DNA of 64,000 nucleotides. It comes from a virus. The stretch lies in the IMG/VR virus record IMGVR_UViG_3300022744_000002, positions 1-64,000 of that record, one strand, 5' to 3'. A program made the translations under genes and the position numbers. The notes below the pieces were generated by a model. That model was not told the DNA's origin and searched no databases. It saw nothing but the letters and a program-made list of their open reading frames with translations. Positions 2 to 62,844 of this stretch are shown in pieces; position 1 is the first letter of the stretch; the number at the start of each line of letters is the position of its first letter.

Positions 2-2509
2 GCGGTCACCGTCGTCTCCCACTCGGGTGTCTACACCCTGGAGTTCGACGACAACTTCCGTGGTGCTCGGCGCTACAACGACAAGGCCGGGCGCATGCAT
101 GCGCGCTACGCCCAGCTCCTCGATGCGGTCAAGAGCCAGGACGTCCAGTTGGGTGACATCTCCCCCTCCCGCAAGCAGGAGATGCGTGAGGAGGCCGCGG
201 CCCTGAGCGGCATGGACCCCAACGACGACGGCATTGAGAGCACCCCCGCCTTCAAGAAGCTGCGCACGCGTGAGCGCAACCATCCCACCCTGTCCAAGGC
301 CGACCAGCGCGCCGCGGCCATCCAGGCGCTGAACGAGTCCCCCAAGCTCACCGGGGAGTACCGCAACTTCGATGACTGGGCCCAGCAGAACGACAACGAC
401 GACCCCTTCGAGGCGGCCCGTCAGTTGGGGGCTCAGGTCGAGGTCACCCGGGCTGTGCGCACGGCCGAGCTCACCAACGCCGAGAACCTCAACCCGCTGT
501 CCCTCAACGGACGGGGCTACGGCAAGGCACTGAAGGCCCTGCAGGACCAGTTCCCGTACTACATCGCCAAGGCCGAGTACATCGCGCCCGGATCGGGCCG
601 ATACGACAGTGGGTACGTCAAGCCGCGGTTCATCCGGCCGGCTGACGCCCTCGCGGGGTACTACGACGAGTCCATCGAGGGCAAGGGCAAGCTGCACGCC
701 GACCGAACGAACTACCAGAACTTCTCCATCATCGGCTCGCCCGCGCACCCCAAGAGCAACCCCGGCGCCCAGGCACCCAAGTGGGACTACATCCCTGAGC
801 GGGATCAGGAGAGGAAGGAAGCCAAGGAGGAGGCTGCTCCTCCGGCCGAGACTCCTACTGCACCCACCCGCGAGCGGCCCTCACCGGAGTCCTCCGACTT
901 CGACAAGTACGCCAAGGTCGATGCCCGGATGGACCTCGTGCGCGCGCTGCGTGACTCGGGGGTCTACGGGGAGAACATGCCTAATCCCGGTGTCGAGCCC
1001 AACGAGGCCGACCGCAAGGCGTGGTCGATCATCCTCGACGACGATCTGGACACCATGGAGGACCGGATCGCCACCGACGCGGTTTACGCGGCCAAGCTCG
1101 ACCGGCAGCTCAAGGACGTGCGGGACAACAAGGGCATCGACGTCGATCCCAAGTTCTGGAAGGCCTTCGACAACCCCGGAGGGGTCAACAAGGTCGTGGC
1201 CGTCCCGAGCAACCCCGTGCAGTTGCTGCGGGGCATCGGCAAGGTCTCCTACGACTTCCCCAACGTCAAGCTGGGGATGCCCACCGAGACCTATGACCGG
1301 CTCATCGAGGCGCTGCTGCGCCGGGGCGAGCTGGGGACCATCGGCGCCACCCAGGAGACCCCGACGTGGATCTCCCCGGAGAAGTCCTACGACGAGGTGG
1401 CCCCGGCCATCAAGGAGTACGCCGGCAAGCTGCAGAACGTGGCCCAGCAGATCAACCAGTACAAGCAGAACCAGCGACTGGACATGCCCCGCGGCTGGAG
1501 TGACGAGCGGTTGAGCGCTGAGGCATCCTCCTTGGCGCAACTCTCCCAGGCCTTCCAGATGAGGGATGCCGGACGAGCAGAAGATATCCCCGAGGCGGAG
1601 GAAGAAGCCCCAAAAGCTGAAGCCCCCGATCAGGGGGCGGTCGTTGACTACCAGGAGAAGCTCCTCGCCGCAGCCGCCCCGCATCAGGAGAAGATCCACT
1701 CCATGATCGGCATGACGGACGTGGCCGACGAGGTGGACAAGCTGGTGGCCCAGGCAGTCATCGGCAAGGCGCGGGAGAAGGCGGGCCTGAAGGTCGATCC
1801 CCGCCCCATGCACCTGGTGTTCACCGGCAACCCGGGCACAGGCAAGACCACTGTGGCCGAGATCATCGCGCCGCTGTATGCCGACCTCGGGCTGATCGAG
1901 AAGCCCACCGTGAAGACCCTGACCAAGTCGGAGATCATCGGCCCCTACGCCAACCAGGTCGAGGAGCACACCCGCAAGGTGCTCAACGAGAACGCGGGCG
2001 GGGTCATCATCATCGACGAGGCCTACACGCTGGAGAACGACGCGGAGGGCAGGAAGGCCATCGAGGAGATGGTCCCCATGCTCACCAAGGAGCTCAGCGG
2101 CACCGTAGTGATCCTCGCGGGCTACCCCGGGCGCATGCAGCAGTTCATGGAGGTCAACGAGGGGCTGGGCAGGCGCTTCCCCAAGACAGTGAAGTTCCGG
2201 GACTACAGCGCCGACGAGATGCGCGAGATCGCCGAGTCCATGCTCGAGCAGCGCCAGTACACCGCCACCCGCCCCGCGGTGAAGAACGCCCTCATCGACG
2301 CCGTCACCAAGCTGGCCGAGCGCCCCAACAACGGCAACGGTGGCGGGGTCAGCAACCTCATCAACCACGCCCGGGACGCTCAGGAGGTCCGGCTGATGAA
2401 GGTCAAGGACCCCACTCCCAAGCAGCTGAGCGAGCTCACGGCCGGTGACATCAAGTACGCCATGATGGCGATGGGTCTTGAGCCCAAGGCACGGAAGAAG
2501 GCTGCGTGA
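2..2509 (+). CDS. Large head-module protein (5' partial) with C-terminal CbxX/SpoVK/EccA-type AAA+ ATPase domain
   Basis: Frame stays open from the window edge to the first ATG at 95, so the gene probably starts upstream. Walker A GNPGTGKT (~1826-1849), Walker B IIIDEAY (~2006-2026), LAGYP and GRRF motifs. Stop overlaps the GTG start of the next gene. Confidence 0.75.
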   Translation, partial: AVTVVSHSGVYTLEFDDNFRGARRYNDKAGRMHARYAQLLDAVKSQDVQLGDISPSRKQEMREEAAALSGMDPNDDGIESTPAFKKLRTRERNHPTLSKADQRAAAIQALNESPKLTGEYRNFDDWAQQNDNDDPFEAARQLGAQVEVTRAVRTAELTNAENLNPLSLNGRGYGKALKALQDQFPYYIAKAEYIAPGSGRYDSGYVKPRFIRPADALAGYYDESIEGKGKLHADRTNYQNFSIIGSPAHPKSNPGAQAPKWDYIPERDQERKEAKEEAAPPAETPTAPTRERPSPESSDFDKYAKVDARMDLVRALRDSGVYGENMPNPGVEPNEADRKAWSIILDDDLDTMEDRIATDAVYAAKLDRQLKDVRDNKGIDVDPKFWKAFDNPGGVNKVVAVPSNPVQLLRGIGKVSYDFPNVKLGMPTETYDRLIEALLRRGELGTIGATQETPTWISPEKSYDEVAPAIKEYAGKLQNVAQQINQYKQNQRLDMPRGWSDERLSAEASSLAQLSQAFQMRDAGRAEDIPEAEEEAPKAEAPDQGAVVDYQEKLLAAAAPHQEKIHSMIGMTDVADEVDKLVAQAVIGKAREKAGLKVDPRPMHLVFTGNPGTGKTTVAEIIAPLYADLGLIEKPTVKTLTKSEIIGPYANQVEEHTRKVLNENAGGVIIIDEAYTLENDAEGRKAIEEMVPMLTKELSGTVVILAGYPGRMQQFMEVNEGLGRRFPKTVKFRDYSADEMREIAESMLEQRQYTATRPAVKNALIDAVTKLAERPNNGNGGGVSNLINHARDAQEVRLMKVKDPTPKQLSELTAGDIKYAMMAMGLEPKARKKAA

Positions 2510-4686
2510 GCCTTCAGCCCGAGGAGATCCTGCGCGACCCGTCCGAGGCCTTCCTCCACCAGCCCGGGTTCCTCGAGGGTGCGCCGGCGCCCATCGAGCA
2601 GCCGGTGGAGCAGCACCCGGACTTCGCCAAGATCGCCGTGGGGATCGCTGCCGCGCTGGTGATCCTGCGGCTGGTGATGAAGCACGAGCTGGGCAAGACC
2701 GATGCTCAGACCCCCGAGGAGATCCAGGCGGCCGCCCATCGGATCTACCGCAGGATCTTCCCCGCGTGGCTGCAGGCGTCTGTGCCGGCCATCACCCAGG
2801 CCTACCGGCTGGGGTCCACCCACTCGGTGTCCTACGCCGAGCTGGAGAAGATGGCGACGGACTACGCGACCGAGCTGGGCGACTTCGTCAACGACTCCTC
2901 CATCCTCGCCCTGACCGACGCCTTTAACGCGCAGGTCAACGCGGGCTGGTCCGAGCGGCTGGCATGGCAGCGCGCGCGTGAGGCCTACGGGCTGGACAGC
3001 GTCCAGATGCGCTCCTACGTCAAGGGCCTCATGGCGCAGGACAAAGAGGGCTACACCACCGACCCGGTGCCTGCTGCGGCCCGCTCCGCGGTCGATCGCG
3101 CCTTCCTCATCCGGGCGGACCGGATCGGCACCAATGAGGCGTTCAAGGCCTCTCAGGTGGGCCGGAACATGGTCTGGATCATGCTGGCCTCGGCCGGTGA
3201 GCTTCCCCCGGGCACGATGAAGAAGTGGGTCACCGCTGAGGACGAGCGGGTGTGTGGGGTGTGTGGGCCGCTGGATCAGGTGACCATCCCCCTGCACCAG
3301 CGCTTCGAGACCCTCGGTGGGGAGAAGTTCTACGCCCCCGGTGTCCACCCCAACTGTCGGTGCGAGCTGGAGATCGTCTACCCCGACCTGGGCAACGACG
3401 TCGTCAAGGCCATGCCCGGCGACCCCTACAACCGCAACGCTGAGGGGGAGTTTGCTTCGCGGGAGGAGCGCAAGGGGGTCGCGCGAGTGAAGGGCGTGGC
3501 ACGCGAGGGCGTGGCTCGGGAGGGAGTCTCCCGCGAGGGCGTGAACCGTGAGGCCACTGGAGTTGTGCGCGAAGCTGCGGGGGGCAACCGCTCGGCGGGC
3601 GTGAACCGGTCGGTCGCCGGGGTCAACCGGGCCACCGATGTCGCCGGGGTCAACCGCGAGACGTGGCAGCAGGCGGACGCGCTCATGGCCCAGCAGCGGG
3701 AGTTGCTGGCCGAGTCGGAGAAGAAGCTGGCCTCCACCCGCTCACGCGCGCTGTCCCAGCGGGAGAACGCGACCTTCACCCGAGAGTTCCGTCCCGACGA
3801 TCCCCAGATGCACACCACCACGGCATTCATGCCGGCCGATGGGTTCATCAAGGCCATGAGGCTGAACCGCAAGGCCGTCCTCACCCGCGGCACTCCCATC
3901 ACTATTGGCACCCAGGACGAGCACGGCTTCCATGGGGTGCAGGCCTTTCATCAGTCACCCGACACCGAGGCCGATCTGGAGACCAGCCCGGCCTTTGCCT
4001 CGGCCTTCGCCTCCTACTTGGACACCTTGGGCAGCGACATCATCGAGCGCCACAAGGTCTCACGGGAGAGCCGTCCCAAGGGCATGAGCGACTACGAGAA
4101 GTTCGGGGACAACCCCAGCCTCGCGGAGTTCGGCAACCAGCGTCGGATGCTGGCGAACCGGTCCAAGCGGGATCTGATGGTCCTGGTCTCTAACGCCAAG
4201 AGCACCTCCGAGGGCCGTGAGGCCATCCGTAACTCCCAGCTCGAGGACTACGACTGGTTGTTCGAGTCCGAGCCCAACGACCTCGCTAACGAGGTCATGT
4301 GGGCGCTGGCGTCCGAGCGGGACCTGTACGACCACGAGGCCAGCCAGGGTCGTCTTCGAGGAACGCCGTGGAACGACGAGGTTGATCGTCTGGGCGGCGA
4401 GGTGAACGACGACGACGTTGAGTTCGGGATGGCCGGGGTCGAGGGAGCACGCGAGCGGTTCGGCGTCCAGCCCATCTTCTTCGCCTTTCCCGAGTGGTAT
4501 GGCGTGCGCGAGGGCGAGCCGGACACGGACAACCCGGTGTGGGTCGAGGGCGACTACCAGGTCATGGACGTCTCACCGCCCCAGACCATCCCCGACGACC
4601 TCCTCGATGACATGGATGCGCGGGAGATCATGAACCATGCCGTCATCGTGACGCTGGGCCGAGTTCAACCACCAAGGGGTGAGTGA
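2506..4686 (+). CDS. MuF / SPP1 gp7-like head morphogenesis protein with long C-terminal extension
   Basis: WVTAEDERVCGVCGPLD and GVHPNCRCE motifs (~3226-3366) are the conserved signature of the MuF family. It lies upstream of the protease-like, scaffold and capsid genes. About 400 aa of unassigned sequence follow the core. Confidence 0.8.
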   Translation: MSLQPEEILRDPSEAFLHQPGFLEGAPAPIEQPVEQHPDFAKIAVGIAAALVILRLVMKHELGKTDAQTPEEIQAAAHRIYRRIFPAWLQASVPAITQAYRLGSTHSVSYAELEKMATDYATELGDFVNDSSILALTDAFNAQVNAGWSERLAWQRAREAYGLDSVQMRSYVKGLMAQDKEGYTTDPVPAAARSAVDRAFLIRADRIGTNEAFKASQVGRNMVWIMLASAGELPPGTMKKWVTAEDERVCGVCGPLDQVTIPLHQRFETLGGEKFYAPGVHPNCRCELEIVYPDLGNDVVKAMPGDPYNRNAEGEFASREERKGVARVKGVAREGVAREGVSREGVNREATGVVREAAGGNRSAGVNRSVAGVNRATDVAGVNRETWQQADALMAQQRELLAESEKKLASTRSRALSQRENATFTREFRPDDPQMHTTTAFMPADGFIKAMRLNRKAVLTRGTPITIGTQDEHGFHGVQAFHQSPDTEADLETSPAFASAFASYLDTLGSDIIERHKVSRESRPKGMSDYEKFGDNPSLAEFGNQRRMLANRSKRDLMVLVSNAKSTSEGREAIRNSQLEDYDWLFESEPNDLANEVMWALASERDLYDHEASQGRLRGTPWNDEVDRLGGEVNDDDVEFGMAGVEGARERFGVQPIFFAFPEWYGVREGEPDTDNPVWVEGDYQVMDVSPPQTIPDDLLDDMDAREIMNHAVIVTLGRVQPPRGE
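3475..3660 (+). repeat. Imperfect 15-nt tandem repeats inside the MuF-like gene (peptide GV[ASN]RE-like, about 12 units)
   Basis: Read directly from the sequence: GVARVKGVAREGVAREGVSREGVNRE...AGVNRSVAGVNRATDVAGVNRE. Confidence 0.8.
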
Positions 4687-12330: not shown

Positions 12331-12366
12331 GGAGGACCCATCATGGGCCGCGTAATCCCCAATGAG
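12331..12366 (+). repeat. Copy A of the duplicated RBS plus first 8 codons (MGRVIPNE)
   Basis: GGAGGACCCATCATGGGCCGCGTAATCCCCAATGAG. Confidence 0.9.
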
Positions 12367-12840
12367 AGGGAGAAGGCCGAGTCCGGCCCGAAGCCCGCTC
12401 AGAGGGAAAGCATTGCCCAAGAGGAGCGCAGGCTACGGGTCAAAGCGCAGCGTCGCGAGTACTACGAGAAGAACCGTGAGCGCATCCTGGAGAAGAACGC
12501 GGAGTGGAAAGCGAAGGCGCGGACGATCGGCTGGTCCCGTACCGACAACAACCACTACCTCGGGTACAAGTACGGCATCACGCTGGACGAGTACGAAGAA
12601 ATGCTGGCAGGACAGAACGGAGTCTGCGCATCCTGCGGGACGCCACCGGCTGGCAGGAAGTTGGCTGTCGATCACGACCATGAGACTGGTGTGATCCGTG
12701 GTCTGCTGTGCCAGCCATGCAATACGGCCCTCGGGCTGCTGCAAGAGTCACCCGATCGCGTAGCGTCCCTTCTGGCGTACGCGCTTTCTCACGAGAATGT
12801 GCTGCTAGCACAAGATAGGAGCCCATCATGGGCAGAGTGA
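12343..12840 (+). CDS. Recombination endonuclease VII family (HNH-like) homing endonuclease
   Basis: CASCG...LAVDHDHETGVIRGLLCQPCNTALG is the endonuclease VII signature. It interrupts an otherwise canonical tail gene row. Confidence 0.85.
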   Translation: MGRVIPNEREKAESGPKPAQRESIAQEERRLRVKAQRREYYEKNRERILEKNAEWKAKARTIGWSRTDNNHYLGYKYGITLDEYEEMLAGQNGVCASCGTPPAGRKLAVDHDHETGVIRGLLCQPCNTALGLLQESPDRVASLLAYALSHENVLLAQDRSPSWAE

Positions 12841-12851
12841 TACCAAACGAG
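12817..12851 (+). repeat. Copy B of the duplicated RBS plus first 8 codons (MGRVIPNE), synonymously recoded
   Basis: AGGAGCCCATCATGGGCAGAGTGATACCAAACGAG. Confidence 0.9.
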
Positions 12852-13610
12852 CAGACCTGGGTTGGGTTTGCCGCTTCCATCGCCAGTGCTGAGCTCGTCC
12901 CCACCGAGGAAGAGATCAACGGCGCCACCGACCTGACTCCGTTCCTGATGAGCCTGAACGCCTCGTCCCAGGGCAACGTCGTACCGACTCCGTCGTTCGA
13001 CACCCTGTTCGAGACGTCCATCGTCGGAACCTCGCAGGCCACCTTCACCGCTGACTTCTACCGCGACGCCGTGGCAGATACCGCGTGGGAGTCCTTCCCG
13101 CGTGGAACGGCCGGCTACGTGATCGTCTCCCGCTTCGGCGGCTCTGGCCCCGACCAGATCCCCCGCAATGGCGACACGGTCGAGGTGTGGCCGATCAACG
13201 TCGTGTCCCGCACTGCGGCTAACATGCAGAACAACGCCGTGCAGACCTTCACCATCACCTGCTCGGTGAACGTGGCCCCGAACGAGGCCGCGGTCGTTAC
13301 CGGCGCAGTTGCTGGTACCCCGAGCGCCCCGCGCAACGTCGTCGGCACGGCCACCGCAGCCACCACGGCCACCATCGACTTCGACGCCCCGACCTACGTC
13401 GGTGCGGGCCTCACGGCTCCGTACTACGCGGTCTACAAGTCGGCCAGCTCAGGCGGCTCGTACACGCTGTGCACGGCCACCATCGTCGGCACCACGGCGC
13501 AGGTCACCGGCCTCACCACGGCCACGACCAGCTACTTCAAGGTGCTGGCGCACAATGCTGCTGGTGATGGCCCGCTGTCCGCAGCGAGCACCGCAGTCAC
13601 CCAGCCCTAA
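12828..13610 (+). CDS. Major tail protein with C-terminal FN3/Ig-like domain
   Basis: Lies between the tail terminator-like gene and the chaperone pair. The C-terminal region (PSAPRNV...YFKVLAHNAAGDGPLS) looks FN3-like. Confidence 0.7.
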   Translation: MGRVIPNEQTWVGFAASIASAELVPTEEEINGATDLTPFLMSLNASSQGNVVPTPSFDTLFETSIVGTSQATFTADFYRDAVADTAWESFPRGTAGYVIVSRFGGSGPDQIPRNGDTVEVWPINVVSRTAANMQNNAVQTFTITCSVNVAPNEAAVVTGAVAGTPSAPRNVVGTATAATTATIDFDAPTYVGAGLTAPYYAVYKSASSGGSYTLCTATIVGTTAQVTGLTTATTSYFKVLAHNAAGDGPLSAASTAVTQP

Positions 13611-55912: not shown

Positions 55913-56221
55913 ATGGCTGACGTCATTGAAATCGACGCCGTCACAGGCGAGGTCATCCACCGGGACTTCACCGCCGAGGAGATCGCGCAGCGAAATGCTG
56001 ATATGGCTGCAGCCGCGATCCAAGCCGCTGCCGACGCATTGACGTCAGGCAACAAGGCCACCATCGAATCGCGGGCCATGACAGCACTGACCACCAACCG
56101 GGACTTTCTTGCTCTTGCCTCGCCCACCAACGCTGAGGCGCTTGCGCAGATCAAGGCGCTGACGCATCAGAACGTGGCGATCATCCGCCTGCTGCTGGGC
56201 GCCCTGGAGGGCGTGGACTGA
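55913..56221 (+). CDS. Hypothetical protein (102 aa, helical)
   Basis: ORF track. Tight packing. Confidence 0.55.
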   Translation: MADVIEIDAVTGEVIHRDFTAEEIAQRNADMAAAAIQAAADALTSGNKATIESRAMTALTTNRDFLALASPTNAEALAQIKALTHQNVAIIRLLLGALEGVD

Positions 56222-59200
56222 TGCCCACCTCACGGATCCGTACCGACGCATCGTTCCATACCCTCAACCCCTCACAGGCGATCAGCGCCACGGGCGGGAC
56301 GATCTCCACGTTCACTCAGAATGGGATTGACTACACCTGCCATACGTTCCTGACATCCGGCACGTTCACCGTGGCTGCGGGCACAGGATTGGTGGAGTAC
56401 CTCGTTGTCGGCGGGGGCGGCGGTTCTTGTGGAGTGAACAACACCGGAGCAGGCGGGGGTGGTGCAGGTGGTTATCTGGCAGGAACCATCGCCGTAAGCC
56501 CCGGTTCCTACTCCATCGTCGTAGGCGCAGGCGGTGTTGCAGGCGGTGTCGGGAACACCGATGCGGGCAACGGCGGGTATTCATCGTTCGGGTACCTCAC
56601 TGCTGCCGGTGGTGGTGGAAGTCTGGCTATTGCCCGTGGGCGTGACGGCGGGTCTGGTGCAGGCGGCGCCAACGGGACGTACCTACCAGGACTGGCTGTT
56701 GCGGGTAGTCAAGGAAACTCCGGAGCGCAGGGTGGATCGGGCATCACCACTGCTGGCGGCGGTGGTGGAGCCGGTGGAGCCGCGTCCGGTACCACAGGGG
56801 GAGCAGGACTGGCTAACTCCATTACCGGGGCGTCAGTCACCTATGCCGCAGGTGGTAACGGATCAACGGGGACGGTCAATGGAACAGCCAACACAGGAAA
56901 CGGTGCAAGCGGAACCAACACTGCCAGTACGGCAGCAGGAGCGACTGGTGGCTCAGGCATCGTCATCATCCGCTACCCCAACAAGCCTCGCGCCGTCCCC
57001 ACGTCAGCGATAGTCAGCGGGGCCAGCAATGCCACGTACACCAGCACCACTCCCGATGGATACCTGCAACTGCCAGGAACCAATGGCTCCTATGCGTCAG
57101 TCCCGGATGCGGCGGCACTGGACATCACCGGAGACATCGATATCCGCGTCAAAGTCGCTCTAGACACCTGGACTATCAGCGGACAGGGAAACCTTCTTGC
57201 CAAGAATGGAGCTTCAGGCAACTACTCCTACGGCATGCGACTGACAACTGCCAGCGAGATACGCATTTACTGGTCTCCTGACGGGACAACAGCAGGCACC
57301 TACATGCAATCGACTGTCAGTCTCCCAGCGCTAGCTGATGGCGCAGCTCTGTGGCTGCGGGCCACACTGGATGTGGACAACGGGTCGTCTCAAAGAGTCG
57401 CCAATTTCTACACCTCAAACGACGGTGCTACGTGGACGCAACTAGGTTCCACTGTCACGACGGCAGGTGCCACCAGCATCTACTCAGGAAACACTAATCT
57501 TGTCATCGGATCCATGTACGACGGAAACTATGCCACCGCTGGCAAGTTCTACCGTGCGCAGGTCTACAACGGCATCAACGGAACCATGGTCCTTGATGCT
57601 GATTTCTCTACCATGCCTACGGGCACCACTACCTCGTTTACTGCTAATACGGGGCAGACGGTGACGCTCACAGGATCACCAACTGTCGTGACAGGCACGA
57701 GAACCTACGACGTCTACACGTTCCTGTCCTCAGGCACGATCACGCTGGCTGCTGGTGGCATGGTGGACATGCTTGTCGTTGGCGGCGGGGGTGGTGGTGG
57801 CGGAACAGGCAACTACTACGCAGGTGGCGGTGGAGCGGGTGGAGTTCTTCTGACGTCTGGTTATCTGCCAGCCGGATCACTTACTGTCACTGTTGGAACG
57901 GGGGGCGGTGCGGGTTACGCAGATACCAACTCGTCAGGCAACGGCAAGGCAAGTTCTGTTGGCCTCTACGCCGCTCCCGGCGGTGGCGGGTGCAGTGCAG
58001 TCAACGCGGCCAACGCCGCAGGTAACAATGGTGGATCTGGCGGTGGCGGGAAGGCGACAGCCGGTACCGGTGGAGCAGGTACGCCGGGGTTCGGAAACAA
58101 CGGTGGTGTCGGTAATGGAAGCAGCAGCGGCTCTGGTGGCGGTGGCGGTGGGGCCGGTGCAGTAGGTGCTGACGGAACCACCGGAGTGGGCGGTGCAGGC
58201 GGTGTCGGTATCGCGTCCACCATCCGCGACGGTTCCACGGTCGTCTACTACGGCGGCGGTGGTGGTGGCTCGTCCACTACTGGTGGCTCGGGTGGCAATG
58301 GCGGCGGTGGAGCAGGAGCGTCAGGAACTGCTACCGGAACAGCTGGTACGGCCAACACAGGCGGTGGTGGCGGTGGCGGAAACGGCACTGGCGGAGTCGG
58401 CGGGTCAGGCATCGTCGTCATCCGCGTCCCACGAGCCACCCCTGTTGCGGGTCAGGTCGTAGCCTCAGGCGGGACAGAGTCCACCTACACCGGCAATGGC
58501 ACCAACGGCCTCAATGGGCAGAATTACAAGGTCCACACCTTCACCAGCGGGGGTTCCCTCGTCGTGAGCAACGCGGGCATGGTGGACGTACTGATCGTCG
58601 GTGGGGGCGGCGCAGGAGGAACGACGAGCAGTACCGGCGCTTCCAGTTACCGTGGCGGTGGTGGTGGAGCAGGCGGCGTTGTCACGCAGTCGATGTATAT
58701 CCCTGCCGGAACTCACACTGTGACAGTAGGTGCGGGAGGCGCGGGGGCAGCAGTCGCCTACAGCGTCTACACCGGAGGGGATAGCGCACTCGGAACACTG
58801 GTCACTGCTGCTGGTGGCGGCAGCGGCGGCGGGGTGAATGTCTACGACATGCTCGCGGAGAAGGGCGGCAGTGGCGGAGGTTCTCCAGACTCCACGTCGT
58901 ACCCGACTGTCGTAGGGCAGGGAATACTCAATCAGGGAAACCGTGGCGGATACGCGACAGGAACTATCTCCACCAACGCAGGTGGTGGTGGGGGTGCCGG
59001 GGCGGTTGGTTCGGATGGAGTGAGCGGTTCCGCAGGCGGTGCCGGTGGCGCGGGCATCACGTCCTACATCACAGGGTCGTCTGTTGCGTACGGCGGTGGT
59101 GGTGGAGGAAGCGGCAATGCCGGTGGCGCAGGCGGTAACGGCGGTGGTGGTGCAGGTGCAGCAAGTGGTACTGCTACTAGTGGAACCGCCAACACAGGTG

Positions 59201-59283
59201 GTGGCGGTGGTGGGACATACAACGGCGCTACCTCTGGCAACGGTGGCAGTGGCATCGTCATCGTGAGATACCCCATTACCTAG
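56221..59283 (+). CDS. Multi-module glycine-rich-domain tail protein with central LamG/ConA-like domain (1020 aa)
   Basis: Three glycine-rich modules begin ..TF.SSGT[FI]T[VL]AAG..V[ED][YM]L[VI]VGGGG and end GGSGIV[IV][IV]R[YV]P. The region ~57040-57640 (DGYLQLPGTNGSYASVPDAAALDITGDIDIRV...) looks like a laminin-G jelly-roll. Confidence 0.65.
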   Translation: MPTSRIRTDASFHTLNPSQAISATGGTISTFTQNGIDYTCHTFLTSGTFTVAAGTGLVEYLVVGGGGGSCGVNNTGAGGGGAGGYLAGTIAVSPGSYSIVVGAGGVAGGVGNTDAGNGGYSSFGYLTAAGGGGSLAIARGRDGGSGAGGANGTYLPGLAVAGSQGNSGAQGGSGITTAGGGGGAGGAASGTTGGAGLANSITGASVTYAAGGNGSTGTVNGTANTGNGASGTNTASTAAGATGGSGIVIIRYPNKPRAVPTSAIVSGASNATYTSTTPDGYLQLPGTNGSYASVPDAAALDITGDIDIRVKVALDTWTISGQGNLLAKNGASGNYSYGMRLTTASEIRIYWSPDGTTAGTYMQSTVSLPALADGAALWLRATLDVDNGSSQRVANFYTSNDGATWTQLGSTVTTAGATSIYSGNTNLVIGSMYDGNYATAGKFYRAQVYNGINGTMVLDADFSTMPTGTTTSFTANTGQTVTLTGSPTVVTGTRTYDVYTFLSSGTITLAAGGMVDMLVVGGGGGGGGTGNYYAGGGGAGGVLLTSGYLPAGSLTVTVGTGGGAGYADTNSSGNGKASSVGLYAAPGGGGCSAVNAANAAGNNGGSGGGGKATAGTGGAGTPGFGNNGGVGNGSSSGSGGGGGGAGAVGADGTTGVGGAGGVGIASTIRDGSTVVYYGGGGGGSSTTGGSGGNGGGGAGASGTATGTAGTANTGGGGGGGNGTGGVGGSGIVVIRVPRATPVAGQVVASGGTESTYTGNGTNGLNGQNYKVHTFTSGGSLVVSNAGMVDVLIVGGGGAGGTTSSTGASSYRGGGGGAGGVVTQSMYIPAGTHTVTVGAGGAGAAVAYSVYTGGDSALGTLVTAAGGGSGGGVNVYDMLAEKGGSGGGSPDSTSYPTVVGQGILNQGNRGGYATGTISTNAGGGGGAGAVGSDGVSGSAGGAGGAGITSYITGSSVAYGGGGGGSGNAGGAGGNGGGGAGAASGTATSGTANTGGGGGGTYNGATSGNGGSGIVIVRYPIT

Positions 59284-61614: not shown

Positions 61615-61824
61615 ATGCCCACGCCAGACCTGTACCACCGCTTTCAGTACCACCCGCCGTCAACAGACCTCGTGAAGACGAACCACGAGACCATCCGGGC
61701 CGAGTGCTACCGCCTTGCCCTCATCCTCGACGCCCTGCCCGATGGGCGGGAGAAGAGCCTTGCCCTGACCAAGTTGGAAGAGGCCATGTTTTTCGCGAAT
61801 GCAGCCATCGCAAGGAACCAGTAA
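61615..61824 (+). CDS. Small helical-hairpin protein resembling the Acb2/Tad1-hairpin family (candidate nucleotide sponge)
   Basis: FQYHPP...NHETIRAECYRLALILDALPDGREKSLALTKLEEAMFFANAAIARNQ matches my memory of this widespread phage family. Confidence 0.45.
   Translation: MPTPDLYHRFQYHPPSTDLVKTNHETIRAECYRLALILDALPDGREKSLALTKLEEAMFFANAAIARNQ
61795..61824 (+). repeat. Copy C: last 9 codons plus stop (ANAAIARNQ*) of gene 61615..61824
   Basis: GCGAATGCAGCCATCGCAAGGAACCAGTAA. Confidence 0.9.
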
Positions 61825-62264
61825 TGCCACTCAACCTGACCGCTGAGCAGCGGATTGCCAAGAGCATCGTCACTGACGAGACAGGATGCTGGATCTGGCA
61901 GCGGGAGATCAATCCTGCTGGGTACGGCTGCATCAGGCTCAATAAGAAGCGTTGGCTCGTCCACAGGCTGACCTACACCCTGTTCGTGGGGGAGATCCCC
62001 GAGGGGATGGACATCGACCACCTGTGTCGCGTGAGGGACTGTTGCAACCCGAGCCACCTTGAGCCTGTGGACAGGAAGACCAACCTCATGCGCGGGGAAC
62101 ACCCCAATATGCAGGCACATCGTGAGGGGCGCTGCGCTCGTGGGCATGTGGTCAATCCAGATACAGCCTCGCCTAGGAGCGATGGCAGGCTCAAGTGCAG
62201 GGAATGCACCAATGCACGCGCCCGCGAGCGTAGGGCCAACGCCGCCATTGCGAGGAACCAGTGA
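61824..62264 (+). CDS. HNH homing endonuclease
   Basis: GCWIW...GYG N-terminal motif and DIDHLCRVRDCCNPSHLEPVDRKTNLMRG HNH core. It ends with the same 9 residues as the upstream gene. Confidence 0.8.
   Translation: MPLNLTAEQRIAKSIVTDETGCWIWQREINPAGYGCIRLNKKRWLVHRLTYTLFVGEIPEGMDIDHLCRVRDCCNPSHLEPVDRKTNLMRGEHPNMQAHREGRCARGHVVNPDTASPRSDGRLKCRECTNARARERRANAAIARNQ
62235..62264 (+). repeat. Copy D: the same 9 codons plus stop at the end of the HNH gene, synonymously different
   Basis: GCCAACGCCGCCATTGCGAGGAACCAGTGA. Confidence 0.9.
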
Positions 62265-62470
62265 CGTTCTCAGAGGCACTGGAGATCATCAAGCAAGGTG
62301 GAGTGGTCACCCGTGAGGGGTGGAACGGCAAGGGCATGTGGATCGCCCTGATGACCACCGAGGTGAGTCTGGACATGGGACGCCCCTACATCTTCATGAA
62401 GACCATTGACGACCAACTAGTTCCATGGGTGGCGTCCCAGACCGACCTGCTCGCGGAGGACTGGAAATGA
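62261..62470 (+). CDS. DUF2829-like protein (Tad2-type candidate anti-Thoeris sponge)
   Basis: MTFSEALEIIKQGGVVTREGWNGKGMWI...PYIFMKT.DDQLVPWVASQTDLLAEDW is the DUF2829 pattern as I remember it. The GTG start overlaps the HNH stop. Confidence 0.6.
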   Translation: MTFSEALEIIKQGGVVTREGWNGKGMWIALMTTEVSLDMGRPYIFMKTIDDQLVPWVASQTDLLAEDWK

Positions 62471-62844
62471 TCAAGGAGACCTGCTCGTGCGGGGCAACCA
62501 TCGAGATCCAGTCCCATGGTGGCGAGCGGGAGATCGTGGAGGAGTGGCGCAAGAGCCACCAGCACATTCCCACCAAGCCCGACTTCACCTCTGATCTGCC
62601 CAGAGACTGGCGCACCGACCCCATCCAGCCCTATCGCTCAGGCATGGTGGGGACGTACGACAAGGACTTCTTCACCCTCAACGAGGACTACGTCTACAAC
62701 GGTGAGGGTGAGCCCGTGTGGATTGGTTCCCGTCTACCCCCGACGTTCTGGGAGGACTGGGCGCGGCACTGGACCAAGCCTGTGGATCGAGGGAACGGTG
62801 GACGCACCACCGCCCACATCACGATGCCCACTAGGCCTGCGTGA
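62467..62844 (+). CDS. Hypothetical protein (125 aa)
   Basis: Internal ATG at 62467 makes an ATGA overlap. Confidence 0.5.
   Translation: MIKETCSCGATIEIQSHGGEREIVEEWRKSHQHIPTKPDFTSDLPRDWRTDPIQPYRSGMVGTYDKDFFTLNEDYVYNGEGEPVWIGSRLPPTFWEDWARHWTKPVDRGNGGRTTAHITMPTRPA

Follow-up and report, generated by a model that had tools for sequence, protein, structure and literature searches.

The Seg and Mob genes of phage T4 home without introns, and T4-type homing elements are, to our knowledge, intergenic and never fused to the duplicated terminal codons of a neighboring gene. Phage operons leave no spare intergenic space. In fungal mitochondria, endonuclease open reading frames (ORFs) known as mORFs sit in the 3′ ends of atp6, atp9, cox2, and nad3 and supply a C-terminal segment of foreign origin, so that the native one comes to lie downstream, as in atp6/ORF360 of Allomyces macrogynus, atp6, atp9, cox2, and nad3 of Glomus sp., atp9 of Rhizopus, and cox2 of Mortierella (PMC3630166). 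A homing nuclease tied physically and functionally to anti-defense genes, whose amplification it drives, is SegB of phage T6 (PMC13096335). Here we analyze the window, a 64,000-nucleotide (nt) stretch of viral DNA (positions 1 to 64,000 of IMG/VR virus record IMGVR_UViG_3300022744_000002), and identify in it an ORF of the HNH_3 nuclease family that starts at the stop codon of an Acb2/Tad1-hairpin family gene, called Acb2 below, and ends, in frame, in a second version of the last nine codons of that gene. We consider it probable, if with some reserve, that a homing-type HNH_3 gene was embedded long ago in the terminal codons of an Acb2 3′ end and that the downstream copy of those codons has since been inherited with the nuclease. 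The literature searches we made returned neither a phage precedent for terminal-codon duplication by a nuclease nor a link between Acb2 and homing nucleases.

Copy 1 of the tail, GCGAATGCAGCCATCGCAAGGAACCAGTAA, closes the Acb2 gene, and copy 2, GCCAACGCCGCCATTGCGAGGAACCAGTGA, closes the HNH ORF; the two agree at 24 of 30 nt. Codon by codon they read (copy 1/copy 2) GCG/GCC, AAT/AAC, GCA/GCC, GCC/GCC, ATC/ATT, GCA/GCG, AGG/AGG, AAC/AAC, CAG/CAG, and TAA/TGA, and both translate, by direct reading and in a scripted check, as ANAAIARNQ followed by a stop. A first-pass annotation of this DNA had described such a duplicate with five synonymous third-position differences, and our reading bears it out; the sixth difference is that between the stop codons. 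The shared peptide is confined to these nine residues, which are preceded by MFF in the Acb2-like protein and by ERR in the HNH protein, and the HNH frame contains no stop of its own ahead of the Acb2-type tail. A six-frame scan of the window for repeated peptides of at least nine residues, tail-fiber repeats excluded, returned only ANAAIARNQ and PIMGRVIPNE (at 12337 and 12822), which flanks a nuclease gene as well.

Each copy also carries the start signal of the gene that follows it. AGGA lies at 61813..61816 in copy 1, 7 nt before the HNH ATG, and at 62253..62256 in copy 2, 4 nt before the GTG start of a Tad2-like gene, a start codon that copy 2 includes. This Shine-Dalgarno-like AGGA, which serves both downstream genes, belongs to the 3′ block that is identical in the two copies (AGGAACCAGT). 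The HNH start had been placed 1 nt after the upstream stop; its ATG (61824..61826) instead overlaps the Acb2 TAA by one base (TAATG). At the other end, the GTGA overlap of the HNH stop (62262..62264) with the Tad2 start (62261..62263) had been given correctly.

The tail is native to the Acb2 family, as the first-pass annotation had supposed for the upstream gene. That gene matches PF24729 (Acb2_Tad1_hairpin) with an expectation (E) value of 6.6e-21 and 74.7 bits, against a curated cutoff of 27, over positions 2–58 of the 58 in the profile and hence to its last position, and it matches PDB entry 9ptq, "Acb2 homolog 43", at E 1.5e-7. By its full-length profile match it is assigned to the Acb2/Tad1-hairpin family, with a putative role as a sponge of cyclic oligonucleotide or gcADPR signals. 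The C-terminus of the family is WANA[AS]IARN plus 0–3 residues in ~60 viral loci, in high-GC and low-GC phages alike. Because this is the native end of dozens of homologs, we conclude that the tail on the HNH ORF derives from an Acb2 gene.

The HNH ORF is predicted to encode a nuclease with intact catalytic and zinc-binding residues. It matches PF13392 (E 7.7e-14) and PHROG 826 (E 1e-43), and the predicted catalytic and zinc-binding positions (D65, H66, N75, H78, N87, and the Cys ligands) are invariant across 36 sequences. An AlphaFold 2 model has a predicted local distance difference test score (pLDDT) of 93.7, and in it the residues of copy 2 close a predicted long C-terminal helix (126–145). 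The best PDB fold matches found with Foldseek were I-HmuI and I-PpoI; the I-HmuI match is weak despite a probability of 1.0 (E 6e-3, TM 0.39) and is used only as support. A sequence search of PDB with the HNH protein gave no match. Relative to the homolog in context L075, 26 codon differences are synonymous and 14 non-synonymous, which argues that the HNH gene is under purifying selection.

This nuclease belongs to a small clade, nearly all of whose members stand behind Acb2 genes. Among 5.8 billion proteins, relatives of more than 50% identity form only eight clusters, and the clade spans 51–91% identity; scans of metagenomes and genomes with a clade profile added one further member, L079. 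In nine of the ten contexts (the window, L001/2, L003, L075/76, L077, L078, L079, L239, and L240) an Acb2-family gene is followed immediately by the clade gene, and in most of them the Acb2 stop and HNH start overlap as TAATG or TAGTG. The same scans supplied a negative control of 159 loci with more distant HNH_3 homologs (at most 48% identity), none of which has an Acb2 gene nearby. Acb2-linked nucleases are monophyletic in our tree, and the gene downstream of the HNH is different in every clade context.

Six lineages of the clade (the window, L075, L001, L004, L003, and L078/79) end in ANAA[IV]AR plus a variable 1–6 residues. The tail is common to the six closest HNH homologs (55–91% identity), in five other genomic contexts, and three basal lineages (L077, L239, and L240) are without it; two tail copies flank the HNH gene in L001, L003, and L078 also. 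Across the six lineages, conservation is higher in the ANAA[IV]AR of copy 2 than in the body of the HNH (6 of 7 columns invariant versus 42%, P ~0.02). What follows AR varies with the context (NQ, HQ, S, or TDGAR), as does the stop/start overlap, a pattern that would fit recombination joints within the AGG-MAC-CAG-TGA block. A derived ending, ARS and a stop, is common to L003 and L078. Copy 2 is an in-frame part of the HNH ORF and holds the start signal for the next gene, and so does not behave as a non-functional remnant. It had been taken for the leftover original end of this genome's own gene; with a tail inherited together with the HNH ORF across six lineages, that account of its origin is probably wrong. 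The sole clade context without an Acb2 neighbor, L004, retains the tail (ANAAVARTDGAR), so that an HNH end of this type away from Acb2, which the first-pass annotation had held to speak against an insertion, does occur once; the other contexts have the neighbor.

The arrangement in L004 looks like a relocation event: in the region 1195..2565, clade member P0002 lies between a small Cys-rich ORF, which it overlaps by 52 nt, and an ORF of 259 amino acids (aa). L075 and L076 (617..874), which hold the closest HNH (91% aa identity), differ at the junction itself, where the Acb2 ORF has lost its stop, ends ANAAIA-SHCNGDCPCHST, and enters the HNH by 16 nt, and where a 12-nt insert creates GGAG ahead of the HNH ATG.

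Comparison of the window with L075 sets the nuclease apart from its surroundings. The HNH bodies are identical at 362 of 411 nt (88%) and the copy 2 tails at 28 of 30, as against 96 of 201 (~48%) for the Acb2 bodies and 31 of 66 (47%) for the sequence downstream. Conservation begins exactly at the ATG of the HNH and ends exactly at its stop; it takes in the tail but not copy 1 or the Acb2 body. The history of the HNH gene is discordant with that of both flanks, and because only the span from its ATG to its stop is conserved, we regard the HNH with its fused tail as a mobile segment. The claim that a cassette bore the recoded copy finds no support in this comparison, in which the fused tail travels with the nuclease and copy 1 does not.

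The HNH gene is a presence/absence polymorphism at one defined site, behind the Acb2 stop, among related genomes. L008, a close HNH-less relative that is 97–100% identical over ~1.2 kb upstream, has an Acb2 gene ending ANAAIARNQ that abuts a Tad2-like gene at the junction ...AGGAACCAGTGA (wider sequence of the uninterrupted type, TGGGCCAACGCTGCGATAGCGAGGAACCAGTGAACGCC), as expected from the earlier proposal that the two small genes were originally adjacent. L327 and L364 supply further HNH-less Acb2 alleles, with tails ANAAIARHQ-TGA. The HNH is absent from 65 of 67 Acb2 loci in IMG/VR, and HNH-bearing alleles are interspersed among HNH-less ones in the Acb2 tree. Identity of the window to L008 stays at 97–100% until Acb2 codon 10 (61644), then falls to ~78% or to unalignable sequence, and is ~88% from 62841. 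Because of this drop, we read the block of Acb2, HNH, Tad2, and the 125-aa ORF behind it (g125) as a mosaic replacement and not as a clean 441-nt insertion. The closest Acb2 besides the window's own is that of L008 (83% identical; the next at most 71%), and the closest HNH-less Tad2 is that of L327 (80%).

Copy 2 lies nearer to native tails than copy 1 does. It matches the L008 junction at 27 of 30 nt (copy 1, 23 of 30), the HNH-less L364 at 28 of 30 (copy 1, 22 of 30), and nine native high-GC ANAAIAR alleles at a mean of 17.4 of 21 (copy 1, 15.4). Codon choice runs in the same direction in L075, L001, and L003, and the third positions of copy 1 are A/T-shifted relative to native high-GC Acb2 alleles. 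Between the window and L075, copy 1 matches at 18 of 27 nt with a different junction, the L075 Acb2 frame running into the HNH; its first five codons match at 12 of 15, more alike than either is to native tails. These comparisons are suggestive of a native copy 2 and a recoded copy 1. It is only suggestive that copy 2 may itself be a chimera, L075-like in its 5′ 18 nt and L008-like in its 3′ 12 nt.

We identify a mirror case at the tail tube gene of the same genome (12330..12851). An Endonuclease VII-type ORF opens there with the native ribosome-binding site (RBS) and first eight codons of the tail tube gene, and a recoded version, ATGGGCAGAGTGATACCAAACGAG, now heads the tail tube gene itself, with rare codons AGA and ATA and a mimic RBS at the nuclease 3′ end. 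The native start (12343..12366, ATGGGCCGCGTAATCCCCAATGAG) is identical at 24 of 24 nt to that of L333 and L334, two relatives without the nuclease, and the native intergenic region has been retained. The nuclease ORF is absent from at least 30 relatives and present in L328 (97% identical). Polarity is unambiguous: the nuclease bears the native copy, and the tail tube gene the recoded one. As in the HNH case, a nuclease shares its reading frame with duplicated terminal codons of its neighbor, and the host gene has a copy that is recoded here and may be so in the HNH case; the cases differ in nuclease family (PF02945), in host gene, in the end concerned (5′ here, 3′ for Acb2), in what is duplicated (the first eight codons with the RBS), and in how clearly polarity is resolved. 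Since this case mirrors that of HNH and Acb2, two unrelated nuclease families show the same design in one genome.

We propose that the HNH ORF is a free-standing homing-type HNH_3 gene whose lineage would have a single address, directly behind the stop codon of Acb2/Tad1-hairpin genes. In an ancestor of the sub-lineage to which this phage belongs, the nuclease ORF would have lodged within the terminal codons of Acb2. Acb2 would thereby retain an intact tail, copy 1, diverged by synonymous changes, and the frame of the nuclease would continue across copy 2 as far as a stop of Acb2 type; copy 2 would afterwards have been passed on as part of the nuclease ORF. Copy 1 would drive the HNH through TAATG, and copy 2 whichever gene comes next, here Tad2 through GTGA. 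Because each copy supplies an AGGA-N-start/stop coupling signal, insertion would cost the host operon little, and duplicated, recoded terminal codons would keep host gene and translational coupling intact inside a packed operon. The nuclease may cut the 3′ ends of HNH-less Acb2 genes, the 21-nt ANAA[IV]AR block of copy 2 may act as right-hand homology or landing pad with the crossover in the AGG-MAC-CAG-TGA block, and the synonymous divergence may guard against self-cleavage, repeat-mediated deletion, or both. The mosaic tract around the HNH may reflect co-conversion; recombination with a related phage, and not a fresh insertion, is the probable source of this tract in the window phage. What stands of the inserted HNH cassette with a recoded end, as first annotated, is terminal-codon duplication by a homing-type nuclease, which fits the data; the event appears to be old, and the locus holds no clean insertion.

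In its strict form, that earlier reading is of a recent event at this very locus, in which a cassette of nine recoded codons, TAA, and a stopless HNH ORF entered 27 nt before the Acb2 stop and left copy 2 as the genome's own original end. We think this unlikely. It would account for the closeness of copy 2 to the uninterrupted L008 junction, for its native-like codon choice, and for a GTGA junction that is native in type, and it has exactly the polarity of the Endonuclease VII case; also in its favor, the window and L075 resemble each other over the opening five codons of copy 1 more closely than either resembles native tails. Against this stand a tail common to HNH homologs down to 55% identity elsewhere, L004 with no Acb2 gene included, and the derived ARS-stop tail common to L003 and L078. 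Conservation between the window and L075 likewise extends to the HNH and copy 2 but not to copy 1, and a nearest relative that differs over 1.2 kb leaves no clean insertion to be seen. A two-gene functional module, with the HNH as a domesticated Acb2 partner and the shared C-terminal peptide kept for a role at the protein level, such as an interaction or oligomerization helix, strikes us as quite improbable. That the closest relative and most Acb2 loci have no HNH, that three clade members have no tail, that 88%-identical HNH copies stand behind ~48%-identical Acb2 alleles, and that fold and family are typical of homing nucleases all tell against it, although it would explain why ANAA[IV]AR is conserved as amino acids through many synonymous changes in six HNH lineages, why it persists in L004 away from Acb2, why it is predicted with high pLDDT as the integral end of a long C-terminal helix, and why HNH and Acb2 trees agree coarsely.

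We give very little credence to a packaging or replication HNH of the terminase-associated type needed by many cos phages, whose position and tail would be incidental to mosaic recombination at a conserved coupling junction. HNH genes are common in actinophages, and the identical 3′ block holds the AGGA used by both downstream genes; a Shine-Dalgarno requirement, however, accounts for 4–6 nt and not for nine conserved codons. We reject the terminase-associated type, since the family is HNH_3 (PF13392) and not the HK97 gp74-type PF01844, the neighbors are anti-defense (Acb2 and Tad2) and small early-type genes and not terminase or portal, and L008 has no HNH at the same site. Chance similarity or an assembly artifact has practically no probability left. 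From local amino-acid composition, nine identical residues would arise by chance with P ~8e-11, and five random substitutions would all be silent with P = 2.5e-4, which rules out chance; an artifact is ruled out because the Acb2-HNH-Tad2 stretch is 100% identical across contigs of five independent ENA, JGI, and Logan assemblies, and the same arrangement occurs in other genomes.

Several observations weigh against the old embedding that we favor. An exact empty-site allele was not found: look-ups with the window's own proteins gave only identical copies of the same phage, a scan with the query up52 gave only the L008 contig again, and this closest HNH-less relative differs from the window over 1.2 kb. 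At a coarse level the HNH tree agrees roughly with that of Acb2, so part of the pattern would be plain co-inheritance. HNH genes follow Acb2 without any tail duplication in L077, L239, and L240, so the association with Acb2 does not depend on the duplication. Our tail comparisons rest on 21–30 nt under strong codon bias, and because this bias makes any two high-GC Acb2 tails 85–93% identical, a copy 2 that travels with the HNH is not cleanly separable from a resident tail. Conservation of copy 2 at the amino-acid level could also reflect a protein function of its own.

The window has a GC content of 64% and an actinophage-like genome. Near-DNA searches with 2-kb and 24-kb queries found no close relatives among GenBank phages, and the phage is represented in metagenomes only. 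Coordinates of the features discussed are collected in Table 1. The nuclease gene is flanked by two putative anti-defense sponge genes, and the GTG start of the Tad2-like gene corresponds in alignment to the ATG of its L327 homolog (80% identical). Acb2/Tad1-hairpin and Tad2-like genes stand side by side in this phage lineage (window 61615..62470; L008 3001..3440; L327 522..1012); the pairing is not a common island, an Acb2 gene lying within 2.5 kb at only 1 of 80 Tad2 loci. Behind Tad2, g125 (62467..62844) has no Pfam or PHROG match, and its N-terminus carries a conserved CSCGA motif common to its counterparts in L001, L008, and L327. In L008, a different HNH_3-like ORF (3635..4066, 143 aa, 32% identical) is flanked by a 78-aa ORF that follows Tad2 and by the g125 homolog; the Acb2-Tad2-g125 block has the look of a nuclease-gene hotspot. 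In L364 (1400..1886), an 88-aa PF01844-type HNH ORF lies directly upstream of an Acb2 gene that has no HNH_3 behind it, a further nuclease beside this anti-defense family. Elsewhere in the window, a glycine-rich ORF of 1020 aa with internal repeated segments (56221..59283) is probably a tail fiber or receptor-binding protein, and further repeated peptides occur at 51.6–54.0 kb.

Table 1. Positions of the features discussed, numbered from the first letter of the window
Feature	Positions	Strand	Basis or remark
Acb2/Tad1-hairpin family gene, 69 aa, putative cyclic-nucleotide sponge, host/target gene	61615..61824	+	Pfam PF24729, PDB 9ptq, PHROG 1454
Tail copy 1 (T1), last nine codons and TAA of the Acb2-like gene	61795..61824	+	
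HNH_3 nuclease ORF, 146 aa	61824..62264	+	Pfam PF13392, PHROG 826
HNH_3 catalytic core, aa 45–87, DH...N...H motif	61956..62084	+	Pfam match and invariant columns
Tail copy 2 (T2), Acb2-type tail ANAAIARNQ and TGA, HNH C-terminus	62235..62264	+	
Tad2-like (DUF2829) gene, 69 aa	62261..62470	+	Pfam PF11195, E 4e-25; GTG start inside copy 2
Mosaic segment relative to L008, the closest HNH-less relative	61644..62841	+	Identity profile
Endonuclease VII-type ORF, headed by the native tail tube start (RBS and eight codons)	12343..12840	+	Pfam PF02945, E 5.6e-23
Recoded RBS and first eight codons, now heading the tail tube gene 12828..13610	12816..12851	+	Comparison with nuclease-less relatives

The interest of this locus lies mainly in a nuclease clade tied to an anti-defense family, the Acb2/Tad1 sponges, next to Tad2, and in a design used twice in one genome. 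If the HNH homes, it would speed the shuffling of counter-defense alleles between phages, which would fit recent evidence that homing nucleases can serve anti-defense loci (PMC13096335). A wider reading, which we hold to be doubtful and offer only tentatively, is that the HNH lineage is specialized on Acb2/Tad1 3′ ends, with the fused tail as a portable homology arm and an RBS/start module for whichever gene comes next; cutting of nuclease-less alleles would then drive co-conversion and exchange of anti-CBASS and anti-Thoeris alleles, and of the neighboring Tad2, among actinophages, and terminal-codon capture with recoding would be a general strategy of phage nucleases that this genome displays twice. 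For annotation, short N- or C-terminal identities between a nuclease and its neighbor call for caution: they mark insertion scars, by which such elements can be located and their target sites predicted.

Among described systems, T4 Seg/Mob-type and I-HmuI-type elements resemble the HNH gene as free-standing nuclease genes between conserved genes with a patchy distribution among relatives. The likeness includes a beta-beta-alpha-Me HNH fold, I-HmuI being the best, if weak, PDB fold match, and a mosaic, co-conversion-like tract around the HNH gene. SegB resembles the HNH as a homing-type nuclease linked to anti-defense genes; it is, however, a GIY-YIG enzyme, associated with tRNA genes, that acts by segmental amplification (PMC13096335), and the HNH locus shows no sign of amplification. 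The likeness to fungal mORFs extends to the design itself: an endonuclease ORF occupies the 3′ end of a host coding sequence, a duplicated C-terminal segment completes the host gene in one copy and follows the endonuclease in the other, the copies differ mostly synonymously, and some mORF inserts are stopless and in phase (PMC3630166). At the present locus, by contrast, the host is a phage, the nuclease is HNH_3 and not LAGLIDADG or GIY-YIG, and the duplicate comprises only nine codons. The terminal-codon design is thus already documented for fungal mORFs, and the phage version differs in its distal copy, which is translated as the nuclease C-terminus, conserved within the lineage, and supplies the RBS/start signal of the next gene.

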